From the NCBI GenBank assembly GCA_010093995.1, contig ML992516.1, forward strand, positions 1 to 64,000: 64,000 bases of DNA, read 5' to 3'. The translations under genes and the position numbers were made by a program. The stretch's first letter is position 1. Every line of letters begins with the position of its first letter. This DNA comes from Elsinoe ampelina. Its lineage: Eukaryota. This document shows positions 29,642 to 49,255 of the stretch, in pieces. The notes below the pieces were generated by a model. The model saw only the letters and a program-made list of their open reading frames with translations. It did no database searches and had not been told where the DNA came from.

Positions 29642-31288
29642 TCATGTGGTGCTGTTCAGTGCACTTCCATTCGCAGCCCTCGCACCGTTCTCGACCTCGT
29701 TCTCACTCAAGTCGCCTTCTTCTTGGTCATCAAGGTCCGGATCAACATCATCCACATCGTCGGCCTCAATCTCTGACCCGCTGTCTGCCTGCTCACCTCC
29801 CCCATTCTTGCCTTCATCCTTCAGCTGCCCGCCTTTCCTCTTTGGAATCACCTCCAAGAACGCCTTGCCCCAGTCCTCATACTCCAACCACTTGAGCATG
29901 ATCTCCACTACGTGATTCGTAGCAAGCACCTTCCGACTCGCCATCTGCAGATAGTCGCCGATAGGTAGCCGTGCAGTCTTGATGCCTGCTTCCTTTGCCC
30001 GCTTGTAGCAGATACCCTTCTCTCGGTTCTTGTCCACTAACCCGCCAATGATGTACGTGCTATACGGCTTGAGCTCCGTAAGCGTGTCTGGCGATTCGGA
30101 TGACAGATAGACTACCTCACCCTGCTCCTGCAGGCCCGGTTTGACCTCCTCCTCTCTCTTCCGTACAAGCTGCTTCCTCTTTGCTGCCGCCGACAGTTCT
30201 TTTTCGCCGCCACCTTGTCCATTCTTCTCAGCACCCTCCCTCGTCTCGCCTTCCTGCTTGCCCTCCCCCGTCTCACCTTCCTGCTCGCCCTCTCCTTTGT
30301 CACCACTCTGCCTCTCCCTCCCCTCATTCCTGTCCTTCTTCCCATCGCCCTCCTTCTCCTCCTTCTCCTTATCCTCCTTCTCCCTATCCTCCTTCTCCCT
30401 ATCCTCCTTCTCCCCATCCTCCTTCTCCCCATCCTCCTTCTCCCCATCCTCCTTCTCCCCATCCTCCTTCTCCCCATCCTCCTTCTCCCCATCCTCCTTC
30501 TCCCCATTCCCCTTCCCCATCAACCCCTCCAACCCAAGATACCGCTCAAACGGCCCCGCCAGCCTCCCCCCCTCATCCCCCTCCCCCATCCACCCCCTCG
30601 CCCTCTCCACCACCATCCCAAACCCCTCCTCCTCGAACCTCACCCCTCTCCAACCCCTATAATGCCCCCTCAACACCCCCTCAAACCTCTCCCTCAACCT
30701 GCCCCCCCACGACGAAACGACCAAATGCGCCCTCCACCTCGCATGCTTATTATCACTATACGCCCTCGTCACCTGCGCCCCCAAACTCGTCCTCTCCCCA
30801 TCACTCATCAGGTTATCGAAACTACAATCCACGACGATGGTCACGGGGAGCTGGACCGCGCGGGGGCGGTGCGAGCCTTTGTGCAGCGACATGGGGTCGA
30901 TGCCGGACGCGAGGAGAGCGGCGCGCTGGGTGCGTTTGGTTTCTTTGCGCCGGGCGATTTCTACCTTGCGTTTGAGGCGGCGGGTCGGGGCGGCGGCGTC
31001 CCATTCTTGTTGGCGCCGGAGTTTTTTGAGTTGGTTCTTTGAGAGGCCTGGGTTGGAGACGGCGAGGGCGCGGAGGGTGGGGTCTTTGAGGTTGGGGCGG
31101 AGGGATTCAAGGGTTGCTATGTCGGAGGGGGTGGAGGGGTCGTTGGCTGTGATGGTGGATGGGGGGTTTGCCACTGGTGGAGGGTTGGAGGAGACATTTT
31201 GGGTTGTCGGGGCTTCATCGACATCCAGAATTTTGTTCGAATCATGATCTAGCTTTCTGAGCTTGGTTGGGCGTTCGTCTGAGTCCAT
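29642..31288 (-). CDS. TRM10: tRNA (guanine-9-N1)-methyltransferase
   Basis: VVDCSFDNLM...SLGAQVTRAYS, VVYLSSES...YIIGGLVDKNREKG, TARLPI...RKVLATNHVVEIM...W..AF..VIPKRK. Confidence 0.9.
   Translation of the reverse strand: MDSDERPTKLRKLDHDSNKILDVDEAPTTQNVSSNPPPVANPPSTITANDPSTPSDIATLESLRPNLKDPTLRALAVSNPGLSKNQLKKLRRQQEWDAAAPTRRLKRKVEIARRKETKRTQRAALLASGIDPMSLHKGSHRPRAVQLPVTIVVDCSFDNLMSDGERTSLGAQVTRAYSDNKHARWRAHLVVSSWGGRLRERFEGVLRGHYRGWRGVRFEEEGFGMVVERARGWMGEGDEGGRLAGPFERYLGLEGLMGKGNGEKEDGEKEDGEKEDGEKEDGEKEDGEKEDGEKEDREKEDREKEDKEKEEKEGDGKKDRNEGRERQSGDKGEGEQEGETGEGKQEGETREGAEKNGQGGGEKELSAAAKRKQLVRKREEEVKPGLQEQGEVVYLSSESPDTLTELKPYSTYIIGGLVDKNREKGICYKRAKEAGIKTARLPIGDYLQMASRKVLATNHVVEIMLKWLEYEDWGKAFLEVIPKRKGGQLKDEGKNGGGEQADSGSEIEADDVDDVDPDLDDQEEGDLSENEVENGARAANGSALNSTT
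30357..30507. repeat. 15-bp coding minisatellite, about 10 units, encoding (G/R/K)EKED repeats in Trm10
   Basis: Repeated CCATCCTCCTTCTCC unit on the plus strand. Confidence 0.9.
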
Positions 31289-44244: not shown

Positions 44245-45027
44245 CTACCACCAGCTGTGCCCCTTGTCTATCTTCGCCAGTCGCTCCGCCCAGTACTGCC
44301 CCTCTTTCGCTCTCGCCGCCGCCACCTCCTTCGCCTGCTTCTTCGCGTCCTCTTGCCTACTCAACTCTGCCAGGTGTTCCGCCACCTGCTGTCTCATCAT
44401 CGCCCTCTCTTCTTGCCGCCGCCTCTTCGCCATCGTCTTCGCCCACTCCGGCTTGGACTTCCAGTCCACGTGTAATCTATGCATCTTGTCAGCCATGGTA
44501 TACAGTTACTACGCGTGCATGTAGCATCGATTAGTGCCCTGAAGCTAGCCGTACACCTCGCTGAGGTGTGTGTTGGTGTATGTTTGTGCCAACGTGATGT
44601 GCTAGCTCAAGTGCTCGAAGCTGGTGTGAGGGGAGGGGTAGATGAAGGAAATCTCGCGTCGAAAAATCGGTGGCAAGCCCTTTCGCAATGATTGCTACTC
44701 GTGTCAGGGGAATGAGTGGGAGAATTTGGCTTACACCATCCTGTTCAACAACCCTTGCTCCTCACCTGGCAAGGCCGCTGGCTGCTCAGGTGAGGGCGAA
44801 GGGGGCGTGATTTTGATCTCGGGGGCGACCGCCTCTTCCTTCTTCCAGGTGGGCGTGAGCCTCGCCAACGTCTCTGCTTCGTCCCAGATCACGTCGCCGA
44901 GGAAGGCCATGAGAGAGGACTCTTCCTCGTTGACGACCTGAGAGCTGGTCTTGACGCTGACGATCCAGCTGTCTTCTTCTTCTGCCTTCTCACTCGTCGC
45001 ACGGCTGTGGTAGTATGTGGTGCTCAT
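44245..45027 (-). CDS. Hypothetical or possibly degenerate gene (two protein-like ORFs; exon structure unresolved)
   Basis: ORFs 45027-44731 and 44496-44245 have protein-like composition and intron-like signals between them, but no clean in-frame join was found. Confidence 0.3.
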
Positions 45028-45300
45028 CTTGTCCTTGATGATTAGCTTTCCGATGAAGCGATTGAGCTGCTGCTGGTACTGCTATGTTGTTACCGTGTGT
45101 GATGTTGTATAGGGTGGCTCGCTGCTGGCTCACCTCCTGGCTCACCGCTACCCCTGACAAGCTACCCAGCGCGCAGGGAAGCCACTAGAAGCACTCTACG
45201 TCACCCCCAGCCTCTTCCACGGCAACCAGCTCGTCGCTAGGCACCCATTCTAGGTTTAGGGCGGCTGAATCAGCGGGACGCCTTACGTGATCTCGAGGGA

Positions 45301-45347
45301 CATATAAGCTGGCTTCCTCCCCCTTTCCTCCTTCTCTTTTCTTTCTC
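45301..45347 (+). promoter_or_regulatory. snRNA-type core promoter: CATATAA plus pyrimidine tract
   Basis: Same layout and spacing (46-48 nt to the +1 A) as at 48106 and 49208. Confidence 0.6.
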
Positions 45348-45540
45348 ATGACTACTAATGATTCGCTAGGCAATGCTCTGCTCTGCTGCGCTGCGCCTAG
45401 TATGGATCTATGGTTTCATGCTTGCACTCCTTGACCGGTTTGCAACCACTTTTTGGACCCAGGCTGGTGATCCCTGAGCTTGCTCACATCACTGGCCACA
45501 GTGTCGCTCGTATTGCACTTCCTCGAGCTGACGCAAACCC
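45348..45540 (+). ncRNA. U2-like variant snRNA (~193 nt): U2-type 3' domain, non-canonical 5' domain
   Basis: Sm-like ACUUUUUGG at nt ~101 (45448-45456). SLIII-like stem 45462-45497 with GAGCUUGCUC apex. SLIV-like stem 45501-45534 with UAUUGCAC loop. Promoter and 3' flank are shared with the U1 gene. Confidence 0.7.
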
Positions 45541-46369
45541 TTTTCATCATATCATGGCTCTACTGCTGTGCTTTGGAGAAGAGCCCTGTGCCTTTGTGAC
45601 TGTGAGACTGGCTGAGTATGGTGTCCTCATGTCGAAATGCTGCGTGTGTGATGTGGGCTTGTGAGGATGAGAAGCAGTGGTATCTACAGAGGCTCTTGGA
45701 GGACTGGCGGCGCGTGGTATATTCATGGTTTTCACGTAGAATCATTTATCAGGTGGGGCACGACAATTTCATGTCCTCAGATAGCACGCGAGATGATGTG
45801 GTGGTGCTGTGGGACGATAGGTGCTGAGCTGATGAGGCTCGAAACTGGTGCTGGCAGGGCTCAAGAGGCAGAGATGCCATAGATGTGATGAGCAGTCGGC
45901 GCAGCCACGGTGCTCGTATGGTCTCAAAGAGACTTTCAATGTATGGTATAGCCACTGATCCTCCTCTTCCGTGATCTTGAAGCTCTTCTGAGGCGTTGCC
46001 AATTTATGCGCTCGATCCGCCTGTTCCATCGTCGCGTGAAGCTGAAGCTGGACAGCTGGAGGAGGATCTTGCATGGCCGATTTTGACACCCACAAGCTCT
46101 GAATTGATGCGTATGATGATTCGAAAGAAGCGTAGAGGTCCATAGATCGTTAATTCGGTGATACGATGTGGATGCCATTCGTATCGCTAGCGTGTTCTCG
46201 AAATGTGTATTCTCGGCCCTTGTTTTGGTGACGCCTGACGCGGGCTGGTATGGCTTCTCCCAAAGCTTCGCAAACCTCACCACCAACACCCACGGCAAAA
46301 ATCAACCGACTACCACACCATCACCTCCCCTCGCATACCAACCTCTCCAACGACATATACAAGCTCAAG

Positions 46370-46992
46370 ATGCCATCAATGGCCTTCGAGCAAGCATTCG
46401 CGGCGTGGGAGAAGTCCTACGCAGAGCTCAGGGGGACGAGCGGTGGCGATCCCACCGACCATCCGGCGGTGAGGACGGAGACGAGGGAGGCATGGGAGAG
46501 GGGAGAGATGAGCAAGGAGGAGTTCACGGTGCTGTGCCTGGCAGAGATCCAGAGCCACACCGCATGGATCAGGGTAAGCAGTGTCCCATCACCTCTCACT
46601 TCACCTTCCCCTACACCAAGCGGCGTGTCAAGCTCAGGGCAAACATCAACATCTGCCCCTGACGCAAGCACTGCAGCTGGCAAACCACAAACACCTCCAA
46701 AAACCCCTTCACGTCGCACTACTGCTACCCCTGCACCACACCCTACTCTCTGCACCGCTGCTGTCGAGGCAAGATCCATACTAACTAGCTTCCGTAGAAG
46801 GTGATCAAGCCGTCGGTCGACGAGGAGGGGAGGTTGAAGGTGGAGGCGCTGGAGGCGACCTTGGGGAAGCAGTTGCGTGAGGAGAGGGCGATTGCGCATG
46901 GGCTTGGGTGGCGGGATGGGTATGCCACCGGGTACGAGGACGGCCTGCGCGCCGGTCAAGCGCAAGAGCGAGGGACACCTGGGGGGTCTTGA
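46370..46992 (+). CDS. Hypothetical small 2-exon protein with C-terminal GxxxGxxxG repeats
   Basis: Intron from 46574 (GTAAGC) to 46797 (CTAAC..TAG) joins two ORFs in frame. C-terminus GWRDGYATGYEDGLRAG. Confidence 0.55.
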
Positions 46993-47045
46993 TACGGGCG
47001 GCAGGAGGCAGATCTAGTGGGCGGCGGGCTGGCTGGAGGACGACT

Positions 47046-47450
47046 CTGGTAGTAATTTCGCGACCAGGAGGCGTTGAGCAAGCAGCATATCCGGTGGAGG
47101 GAACAGACATGGAAGCAGTCCTGGTAGTATCTTCGCGATAAGGAGGCGACGAGTAAGCAGTATACCTGGTGGCGATGGCACATATCGACAGGAGTCTGGT
47201 AGTACCTTTTGGAGCAGGAGTTATCAAAGTTGGCTGCGCGGTGGTGGCAAACTATGCACGAGACCTGGTAGTATCTTTGCGAGCATAACGCGATCATTGA
47301 GCCAGCCAAACTCGTTTCAGAGCAGTCCGTGAAACAGAATGGTAGTATCATTGCAAGCAGAACGCGTTCAAGATCCGATGACACTTCTGGTGTCGAAACA
47401 CAATGTCCGTGACTGGTAGTGCCCTTCTCACAGTGCGAATTGGCAACCAG
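47046..47450. repeat. Degenerate ~74-bp tandem repeat, 6 units, with a conserved (C/A)TGGTAGT core
   Basis: Cores at 47046, 47121, 47196, 47265, 47339 and 47413 (spacings 75, 75, 69, 74, 74). Confidence 0.75.
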
Positions 47451-48151
47451 AATACCGTGTGTGGCCAGTCACAGACATGCAAGACGGTGCTCAACTGATG
47501 TTTGCTGAGCGCTGAATGCTACCATGCAGTCTGAGAGAGCCTGCTGCTAGAGTGCTTGCCAAATGTTTGCTCATGATATGTTCCCGTCGCTGCTCTCACG
47601 TGTCTATTTGCTCCAGAGAGGCATACGCGCTTTGTCAATTGTTTGATCGCCTTAACAAGGGCGTGATAACGCGAGGACTGCACAGCTTCCAATGACAGCC
47701 ACACGAATAGAACTCCAGGCCCAGCGGACAATCATTGCACGGTATGAATCACTGTAAGACCTCCTGAGGCCTCAGATACACACGATGAACGCGTCGAATC
47801 GTGCTTCGAAACTCGAGGGTCGTCCACAAGTGCTCCAGTGATCTCACCACGGCCTATCCGCCTGTCGCAGTGATCTCGATGGCCCGATGCATCGTGATGC
47901 GGCTCTCCTCGGCTTGAGTCAGGGCCGGCTTCAAAGCCAATAGGGGGTCGCCAGGGGTCGCTTCCCGCGGCTATTAGCCTCCCCTCGCCGTCGCCAGCGA
48001 CGACCAGCCACCAGACACGTCACTGCCGCCCTCGGTAGGCTTCCATGGCCTTCTATTGAGGCTGCGCAGCGTCGTTGCAGTGCACCGTAGCCAAGCCTCG
48101 AGATGCATAAAAACGCGCTCCTCTTCCCTTTCTCTCCTTCTTTCTTTCTTC

Positions 48152-48303
48152 ATACTTACCTTGGAGAGTCAGTTCAGGATCATGAAGCTGGACTGGCTGC
48201 TTGGATTGGGCCTCATTGCACAGCGAGGTCTTGATTCAAGTATGAGCCATGGGAAACCATGTTTCTTCTCTATAATTTTTGATTTATCCCTCTTGGAGGG
48301 GTG
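48152..48303 (+). ncRNA. U1: U1 spliceosomal snRNA
   Basis: 5' AUACUUACCU, SL1 loop GAUCAUGAAG (U1-70K site), SL2 loop AUUGCAC (U1A site), SL3 CAUGG-GAAA-CCAUG, Sm site AUAAUUUUUG, and terminal hairpin CCCUC-UUG-GAGGG. Confidence 0.93.
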
Positions 48304-49255
48304 CTTTCATCATATCATGGCTTGATAGCTGTGCTTTGGAGAAGGTGTTCATGTCTTTGTGAAGTCATATGTGTATGGCGTCCTCATGTCAGGATAGTGT
48401 GTGTGGTACGTGACCTTGTGCCGTGCATGATGCCCTCACATCAAGACAGTATGAGTACGACGTGATCTTGTGCTGCATGCCTCCCTCGCTTTGAGTAGCA
48501 TAACAACATGACGTTGGTGCGCAAGCGACGAGGAGTAAAGTGTTGTGTGCCTCTCACTCCAAAAGCCATAACGTTGTGACGAGTCTACGCGCCCATGGAA
48601 GACATTGACAGACGCTCCCTCTCACTCCAGAGTACACGAAACCGCGACGACAAGGCCTTGCAATCACTCCACAGGGCATATATCCTTGTGATTCAAGCGT
48701 GTGTACAGCGTCCAGTGCAGGTTTTCTCACTCTTGAGGACATGAGATGGCGACGACAAAGGCTTCCTCACGCTCCACGAAGTACATGTCATCACGTCTCT
48801 TGTGTAGGTACAGACTTGGGCGCAGGCTTCCTCACACTCCAAGAGACGGACCTCGAGAATTTTGACGTGCGCTGGGTTGTTGTGTGCGGCCGTCCTCTCA
48901 CTTGGCGAAGCGATCGTAACGTGCGCCTCTCTCGGATCACAGTGCCAGTGACAAGCCTCCTTCAATCTTTACAGATGATCATGCTCATGAGCTGAGAGAC
49001 TGTTATGCAGTTCTTCACACGGCAGACGATGCCTCTAGCGCTCCATGGTATAGGCGCACGCTTCCGCGACCAGACCACTGATCCCAGGGCTCTGAGCTAT
49101 CATCGGCGATGGCCAGCCAATCTCCGACACGCCTTCCATGGCCTTCTGTGATGCCCATCGATGACGCGTGCCATTGATCCAGCAACCAGGGTTAGGGTTG
49201 CAAGGTGCATAAATACGCTGACCTGCCACCCTTCTTCCCTCTTTTCTTTCTTTCC

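Follow-up and report, generated by a model that had tools for sequence, protein, structure and literature searches.

The first 45 nucleotides of U2 snRNA are among the most conserved RNA sequences, and the loop of its stem-loop IV (SLIV) binds proteins of the U2B''/U2A' family. The U2 gene of Rhodotorula hasegawae is reportedly an intron-containing fungal snRNA gene. The available text of PMC2396436 indicates that fungi usually possess one or few snRNA genes. U2 genes can also be cut by the Utopia/Keno retrotransposons, for which the available text of PMC4640811 gives a junction at U2 nt 38/39 with the element upstream, reports hosts among Amoebozoa, SAR and Opisthokonta, names oomycetes, wasps and reptiles, and mentions no fungal host. 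No description of a fungal U2 gene devoid of its head was found in the literature, the supplementary fungal snRNA tables of PMC2396436, including the intron-bearing ones, being outside this scope.

The window, i.e., the whole stretch of 64 kb of DNA that was analysed, contains on the plus strand at positions 45348-45540 an snRNA-type gene for a predicted RNA of about 193 nt, which is the length of U2. This is very probably a U2-derived gene with live signals that lacks a working U2 head. All sampled words of the stretch are present in three runs of organism A, indicating that it is not an assembly artefact. The start at 45348, 45 nt past the TATA box, was placed by analogy with the neighboring U1 gene, whose start is fixed by AUACUUACCU at 48152, and the ends of the RNA also by analogy with the metagenome locus L015; the preliminary description of the locus had chosen the same start coordinate. 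The features of the gene and its surroundings are as follows.

45265-45276, plus strand: upstream promoter element CTGAATCAGCGG, read by eye
45292-45308, plus strand: CTCGAG and TATA box (CATATAAG, 45301-45308), compared by eye with U1; no difference listed in organism B
45313-45347, plus strand: CT-rich tract of 35 nt between TATA box and start; three substitutions listed in organism B
45348-45540, plus strand: predicted RNA, putatively starting at the first A past the CT tract and ending just before the 3' hairpin
45348-45419, plus strand: 5' hairpin of 72 nt in predicted folds, with no detectable homology
45398-45447, plus strand: degenerate remnant of the branch-point sequence and stems IIa/IIb, from a MAFFT alignment judged by eye
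45448-45456, plus strand: Sm-binding site ACUUUUUGG, aligned to the Sm site of RF00004
45462-45497, plus strand: stem-loop III (SLIII) with the apex GAGCUUGCUC at 45475-45484, from RF00004, fold and alignment
45501-45534, plus strand: SLIV with a UAUUGCACUUCC loop of the U2A'/U2B'' type, from RF00004, fold and alignment
45541-45582, plus strand: 3'-flank hairpin UUUUCAUCA..UUGGAGAAGA, fold of -11.0 kcal/mol, z = -2.2
45613-45663, plus strand: further flank common to U1, 75% identity to 48370-48420 over 51 nt
48152-48303, plus strand: canonical U1 snRNA gene (RF00003, 63.8 bits, E = 2.4e-15) with an intact AUACUUACCU 5' end
45079-45341, minus strand: spliced transcript with a 55-nt GTGAGC..CAG intron at 45079-45133

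At the Rfam gathering thresholds no RNA match was obtained in the 64-kb window, and at permissive thresholds (E up to 1) there were exactly two, U2 at the locus and the U1 gene. The match to the U2 model (RF00004) spans 45426-45542(+). Its 43.7 bits fall short of the gathering score of 46; the E-value is 2.7e-7 in a search of 901 bases and 1.9e-5 when the whole window is searched. The alignment is genuine only from just upstream of the Sm site to the 3' end, and 78 model positions in the 5' half are skipped, in line with the earlier expectation that the model would align with the 3' half only. With E up to 10, U2 is the sole snRNA-class match on the locus, overlapping lower matches of the same clan being masked. 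The locus has no match to the models of U12 or other Rfam snRNA families; U5, U7 and telomerase RNA were dropped, as was U12, with no model match or motif. No tRNA is present in the window, and a tRNA-linked Pol III promoter of the trypanosomatid type was likewise dropped.

A scan of metagenome contigs for three 3'-domain motifs yielded 20 loci. Rfam identifies 15 of them as canonical U2 (89-160 bits), three others (L002, L007, and L009) score just 34.4 bits with the U2 model, and two (L003 and L012) are AT-rich chance matches with no Rfam match. Eight of the 15 canonical loci (L004, L005, L011, L014, L016, L017, L019, and L020, with L016 and L017 being the same sequence) carry spliceosomal introns in the 5' domain, read by eye from splice motifs. 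These introns are short and occupy varying sites (within GGCUUAG|AUCAAG, before GUGUAGUA, or after UCUGUUC), and the intron-bearing loci score 89-127 bits vs. 140-160 bits for five complete intron-less loci. A weak match to SL1 RNA (L008:935-1036, 56 bits vs. a gathering score of 75) is located next to the canonical U2 of L008, a contig that probably derives from a nematode-like animal rather than from a fungus.

The 3' domain of the predicted RNA is that of U2. If the RNA starts at 45348, the Sm-type site occupies nt 101-109, and its TTTTTGG core is common to the aligned fungal loci. Downstream lie SLIII and SLIV, the latter with the loop UAUUGCAC at 45510-45517, so that the elements by which U2 is recognized, an Sm site followed by SLIII and SLIV with an AUUGCA loop, are all present. 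The U2-like length, Sm-site position, SLIII apex and SLIV loop reported in the preliminary description were thus all found at 45348-45540(+). In an alignment of 11 sequences (the window, L009 and nine canonical fungal U2 loci) the consensus structure of SLIII and SLIV fits the window, and double changes occur in 11 of the 23 pairs; SLIV of the window differs from that of L009 by U-A to C-G double changes that preserve the pairs. By analogy with U2, binding of the Sm ring and of the U2A'/U2B'' pair is expected for this RNA if it is made.

Judged from its sequence, the locus looks like a live snRNA gene with a Pol II snRNA-type promoter. The upstream element CTGAATCAGCGG resembles by eye the TGAsTCAGCAG motif located upstream of the TATA box in L009, L011, L016, and L020, and lies within the block 45251-45315, in which no difference is listed for organism B. 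The locus is laid out as CTCGAG, 4 nt, CATATAAG, the 35-nt CT-rich tract and then ..TTTCTC|ATGAC; the layout of the U1 gene is CTCGAG, 4 nt, CATAAAAA, a CT-rich tract of about 45 nt (48107-48151) and then ..TTCTTC|ATAC. A comparable CT tract is found in the canonical U2 loci L015, L018, and L011. A TATA box about 40-55 nt upstream, a CT tract, a start at A and a stable hairpin past the mature 3' end are all present at the locus. A retroposed or insertion-truncated U2 pseudogene was rejected, the gene having its own promoter and no adjoining mobile element or ORF. Elsewhere in the window, at about 30357-30502, BLAST of the promoter region revealed 15-nt-spaced matches to a CT-rich 11-16-mer, which suggest a CT-rich tandem repeat.

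The U1 gene, which lies 2.7 kb downstream on the same strand and forms a small snRNA cluster with the U2-like gene, provided an internal standard with which to compare promoter and flank, its start being fixed by the conserved 5' end. It scores 63.8 bits vs. a gathering score of 69.5 because its last stem-loop is shortened. The 3' flanks of the locus and of U1 are 90% identical over 40 nt, and for the first 42 nt of each (48304-48345 in U1) the hairpin UUUUCAUCA..UUGGAGAAGA is predicted; the flanks are near-identical within the genome, and the loop part of the hairpin differs between lineages. A hairpin composed of UUUUCAUYR, 15-35 nt and YUGRAGAAGA is predicted to follow the RNA directly in each of the 14 fungal U2-type loci that were folded (L002, L004-L007, L009, and L013-L020); those left out were L001, L008, and L010, which have a non-fungal look, the chance matches L003 and L012, and L011, which ends at the contig edge. 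Changes in one half of the outer stem are matched in the other, CAUCA occurring with UGGAG and CAUUG with UUGAAG. According to the available text of PMC8421224, all Pol II snRNA genes of S. pombe have such hairpins, to which the RNase III Pac1 binds, ending transcription. By this analogy, the 3'-flank hairpin is a probable processing and termination signal for an RNase III of the Pac1/Rnt1 type. Hairpins of this kind could also be used to search for Pol II snRNA genes in fungi.

The 5' part of the RNA is different. The 5' end, stem I and the U6-pairing stretch (GCCUUUUGGCUUAGAUCAAG, as in L015 and L018) are missing at the locus, as are the other canonical U2 5' motifs; searches of the 64-kb window for these motifs gave chance-level matches only, and no canonical U2 is present within the window. 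The absence of the conserved U2 5' sequence, claimed earlier for the locus, is thereby confirmed and holds across the 64 kb. The first 28 nt match canonical U2 5' ends no better than shuffled sequences (fractions of 0.16-0.84), and over the first 100 nt there is no significant similarity either to the 5' domains of canonical U2 or to that of L009. Lacking the sequences for U6 pairing and branch-point recognition, the RNA cannot act as U2. The gene is a U2 snRNA paralogue. Elsewhere in the genome there must be a canonical U2, as the organism has ordinary GT..AG introns (one of them spliced, 45079-45133) and a canonical U1.

Between the unmatched first 50 nt and the Sm site, a degenerate remnant of U2 is recognizable by eye. 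The region 45398-45447 is colinear with the part of canonical fungal U2 that holds the branch-point sequence and stems IIa/IIb, except for a 4-nt insertion and, relative to the canonical loci, a deletion of about 24 nt ahead of the Sm site; the MAFFT alignment included 10 metagenome U2-type loci (nine canonical ones and L009) and was judged by eye, with no significance test. The remnant reads CUAGUA, the 4-nt insertion and then AUCU..UUCAU.G..UGACCGGU.U.C. Where U2 has GUAGUA followed by UCUGUUCUU, the locus has CUAGUA followed by UGG and AUCUAUGGUU; five of the six bases are kept, and the invariant downstream stretch required for branch-point recognition is altered. Stems IIa/IIb are represented by a colinear resemblance seen by eye (UUCAU.G and UGACCGGU.U.C), interrupted by the deletion, and a small hairpin is predicted at 45422-45445. 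Two details of the preliminary description need correction here: UAGUA is located at 45398-45402, not at about 45409, and it is not the only part of the U2 5' domain that is left. Nor is the 5' domain new throughout, its second half being degenerate U2. The remnant includes GUAUGG at 45400-45405, and L009 contains GAG|GUAUGU about 50 nt from its putative start. GUAUG lines up with the GUAGUAUCUG stretch of U2 in both RNAs, by alignment and by eye, and is therefore probably a relic of U2's own sequence. The likeness of GGTAGTATCT, elsewhere in the window, to the U2 branch-point stretch seems coincidental.

The minimum-free-energy fold contains the AUGA/UCAU, GAUUC/GGAUC, and CUAGGC/GCCUAG pairs from which one long 5' hairpin had been proposed. 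The whole RNA folds with -64.3 kcal/mol (z = -3.43), none of 200 shuffles being as stable, and the 5' 100 nt alone with -31.3 kcal/mol (z = -2.80), a stability matched by one of 200 shuffles. Both values agree with that proposal. The hairpin apex is of low complexity (CUCUG CUCUG CUGCG CUGCG, 45376-45395). No second copy of the 5' domain exists in the window; the search returned just a 10-nt repeat, TCGCTAGGCA, at 45234 (E = 4.4). The branch-site-like UACUAAU noted previously near the start of the RNA is indeed there, at 45353-45359 inside the hairpin. Followed by 7 nt and UAG, it makes the segment 45353-45370 look like a branch site with a 3' splice site. This segment may be the tail of an intron that was fused to the promoter by a deletion, a plausible origin suggested by the introns in 8 of the 15 canonical metagenome U2 loci.

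The three low-scoring metagenome loci L002, L007, and L009 represent a second headless lineage, likewise fungal. Their RNA, at about L009:240-452, is preceded by a TATA box and CT tract and has a non-U2 5' domain of 112 nt. Like the window gene, they have a ACUUUUUGGACC Sm site, U2-type SLIII and SLIV, a 3' hairpin of the same type and a sub-threshold U2 score. Their 5' domains are unlike that of the window (461 of 500 shuffles score as high), and similarity of the metagenome loci to the window is confined to 45448-45582, no synteny beyond the RNA being seen over contigs of about 1.2-1.5 kb; an orthologue and a parallel event are both possible. The 5' domain of the L009 lineage also folds better than shuffles (z = -2.3 vs. 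-2.8 for the window). L007 and L009 have no differences over 213 RNA positions, 112 of them in the 5' domain, vs. 37 of 714 in the flanks; right beside the RNA the counts are 4 of 50 and 5 of 49. Two headless lineages without common 5' sequence make a conserved 5' function unlikely, and the genes of the window and of the second lineage may be independent decays.

The sister species organism B is represented by one DNA contig (run X5) that covers 45006-46000 with 93 substitutions and 20 gap letters in total. Counts by region refer to the differences listed, the remaining 52 substitutions and 5 indels being assumed to lie beyond 45696, and are as follows.

45006-45250 (245 nt): 23 substitutions and 4 insertions among the differences listed
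45251-45315, promoter block (65 nt): no difference among those listed
CT tract (32-35 nt): 3 substitutions among the differences listed
45348-45433, 5' domain (86 nt): 6 substitutions and 5 deletions (7 nt) among the differences listed
45434-45584, Sm site to the end of the 3' hairpin (151 nt): 1 substitution, C45487T, among the differences listed
45585-45696 (112 nt): 7 substitutions and 1 deletion among the differences listed

Over 45006-45696, 51 listed events in 691 nt correspond to about 7 per 100 nt. At this average rate about 16 events would be expected in the 216 nt of promoter block, 3' domain and 3' hairpin; a single one is listed, C45487T, which falls on an unpaired bulge of SLIII. 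These figures accord with the preliminary view that the locus is not subject to random decay. The 5' domain behaves otherwise, with 11 listed events in 86 nt, i.e., at or above the flank rate, seven of which (4 indel events and 3 substitutions) are in the low-complexity apex 45371-45393. The lower hairpin still folds in the rebuilt organism B sequence, in which the placement of deletions is ambiguous, and G45405A converts a U-G pair to U-A. A 2-nt deletion at 45351 is next to UACUAAU, and survival of the motif depends on where the deletion is placed. For the 5' hairpin, the comparison with the ortholog supports the retained stem, with one pair improved, and not a conserved sequence, which changes at about the flank rate.

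Part of the promoter-block conservation may be explained by a neighboring transcript on the minus strand. Its exon 1 (45134-45341) reaches to within 7 nt of where the U2-like RNA is predicted to start and overlaps both the upstream element and the TATA box; further on, at 44731-45081, there is a frame of 116 codons. None of the runs listed for the locus is recorded as RNA, the RNA label of run X3 being a guess. The run X3 contig of 8774 nt spans the locus and skips the 55-nt minus-strand GT..AG intron 45079-45133, so it is at least partly RNA-derived; as it also runs through intergenic DNA, and the contigs carry no end or strand information, it cannot show that the snRNA is made. Contigs of runs X8 and X4 stop at 45341 and start at 45477, and the gap between is not evidence. 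Among the other features of the window, which is fungal, are an upstream gene for an SPX-RING protein, with nearest Atlas clusters in Basidiomycota and Ascomycota, and, at 47042-47370, five copies of a 75-nt unit containing CTGGTAGTA, which on the minus strand encode a repeated RYYQ-containing peptide in a 170-codon open frame (46956-47468).

Overall, the headless RNA appears to be kept by selection rather than decaying, with a probability of roughly 0.55. We lean toward such a selected, splicing-dead particle because the signals are intact in two lineages and because the 5' domain is conserved between L007 and L009. Appreciably less probable is a dying U2 duplicate, which lost its head, is perhaps still transcribed, has no function and is held by gene conversion and by the constraint of the overlapping transcript; possibly, a deletion joined the promoter to the end of an intron like those found in many fungal U2 genes. 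The 5' domain changing at about the flank rate in organism B, the lack of 5' sequence common to the second lineage and a low-complexity insert at 45376-45395 that looks like slippage are all consistent with decay, and the intron-like segment 45353-45370, given the introns of 8 of the 15 canonical loci, with the proposed route. The 90% identity of the U1 and U2-like 3' flanks within the genome, combined with a loop that differs between lineages, is a signature of concerted evolution and suggests that snRNA loci undergo gene conversion, a process that could preserve the 3' domain and flanks even if the RNA is not under selection. Conversion by canonical U2 cannot, however, explain the lack of differences over 112 positions in the 5' domain of L007 and L009 vs. 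about 5% in their flanks. Against decay are also the expression signals, all intact in two separate lineages, and the hairpin stem, which survives the changes in organism B, one of which improves a pair; the first 28 nt have no significant similarity to canonical 5' ends, which leaves the proposed origin a conjecture.

The preliminary suggestion of a new 5' function or a decoy found no support: in organism B the domain evolves about as fast as the flanks, and it has no significant sequence in common with that of the second headless lineage. Specific pairing of the 5' domain, as a mimic of the branch site (for U2 or the branch-point binding protein) or of the 5' splice site (for U1), or as some other guide, is improbable. 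The presence of UACUAAU and GUAUGG in the window RNA and of GAG|GUAUGU in L009, and the stable folds of both RNAs, would suit it. The best duplex of the U1 5' end with the window 5' domain is, however, only -3.6 kcal/mol, with 862 of 1000 shuffles as good or better, and does not involve GUAUGG; that with the L009 domain is -7.2 kcal/mol, with 113 of 1000 shuffles as good. In addition, GUAUG is probably a U2 relic, L009 has no UACUAAY-like motif, and the 2-nt deletion in organism B adjoins UACUAAU. Even less probable is a working U2 whose head comes in trans, or from an exon beyond a long upstream intron, and is joined to UACUAAU..UAG or ..CCUAG (45396-45400) as the acceptor. Introns in the 5' domain are common in fungal U2 genes and the branch-site-like motif has an AG at the right spacing, but no U2 5' exon was found in the 64 kb, where Rfam with E up to 1 gives just the locus and U1, and such an exon 1 would probably be detectable, a 38-nt U2 head in L015 having scored 32.8 bits. 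Moreover, TATA box, CT tract and A start lie directly upstream, as in U1, and past any acceptor the invariant UCUGUUCUU and the stem IIa sequence are not preserved. A spliced-leader-like RNA, donating to mRNAs a leader of about 52 nt that runs to a hairpin-held 5' splice site and is followed by the Sm site, is scarcely credible: its leader, GUAUG inside a stem and Sm site resemble those of SL RNAs, but its putative leader changes faster than any other part of the gene, and U1 is not predicted to pair there better than with shuffled sequences. To our knowledge, SL trans-splicing is unreported in fungi.

The selected particle could be pictured as follows. A U2 paralogue retaining the upstream element, TATA box, CT tract, A start, Sm site, SLIII/SLIV and an RNase III-type hairpin would be transcribed and processed at its 3' end, and, as with U2, the Sm ring and the U2A'/U2B'' pair would assemble on the RNA. 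Of U2 itself, the first third is gone, its U6-pairing region (5' end, stem I, and helix I) replaced by about 50 nt of unrelated hairpin-forming sequence, and the branch-point and stem II region is degenerate. With neither U6 pairing nor branch-point selection, the resulting particle would be dead in splicing. Its selected role, if any, would reside in the 3' domain and the bound proteins, for example in competing for or storing U2 core proteins, and the 5' hairpin would serve mainly as a stable, fast-evolving cap-proximal structure. That headless U2 RNAs form a conserved class of fungal Sm snRNPs, with their own genes, lineage-specific structured 5' domains and a non-catalytic role, for instance in the buffering or regulation of U2 core proteins or of the assembly of the U2 snRNP, is a doubtful extension that we offer tentatively; the window gene and L002/L007/L009 would be its members. 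A headless copy with all Sm-particle signals in two lineages is a natural test of the U2 3' domain alone, and of how snRNA genes die or gain roles. For annotators, U2 half-matches just under the Rfam threshold can be real genes, and fungal U2 genes often have introns, by which the scores are lowered.

Compared with the known systems, the gene is closest to fungal U2 (RF00004), with which it shares the length, the Sm position, SLIII with GAGCUUGCUC, SLIV with UAUUGCAC, the promoter layout and the 3' hairpin; unlike fungal U2, it has no 5' end, stem I or U6-pairing stretch, reads CUAGUA with a 4-nt insertion and has degenerate stems IIa/IIb. Intron-containing fungal snRNA genes account for the intron-like UACUAAU..UAG at its 5' end; once spliced, however, such U2 genes encode a full canonical U2, whereas the locus has no exon 1. 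U2 genes cut by Utopia/Keno (PMC4640811, available text) are likewise left with a U2 3' part without the head. Insertion of such an element was rejected for this locus, which retains UAGUAU, has an snRNA promoter upstream and no element, and does not fit the nt 38/39 junction. Animal variant snRNA genes and pseudogenes, e.g., of human U1 and U2, are extra diverged copies as well; in the available text of PMC8457000 they are sequence variants within large families, whereas here the whole head is missing and the expression signals are kept.
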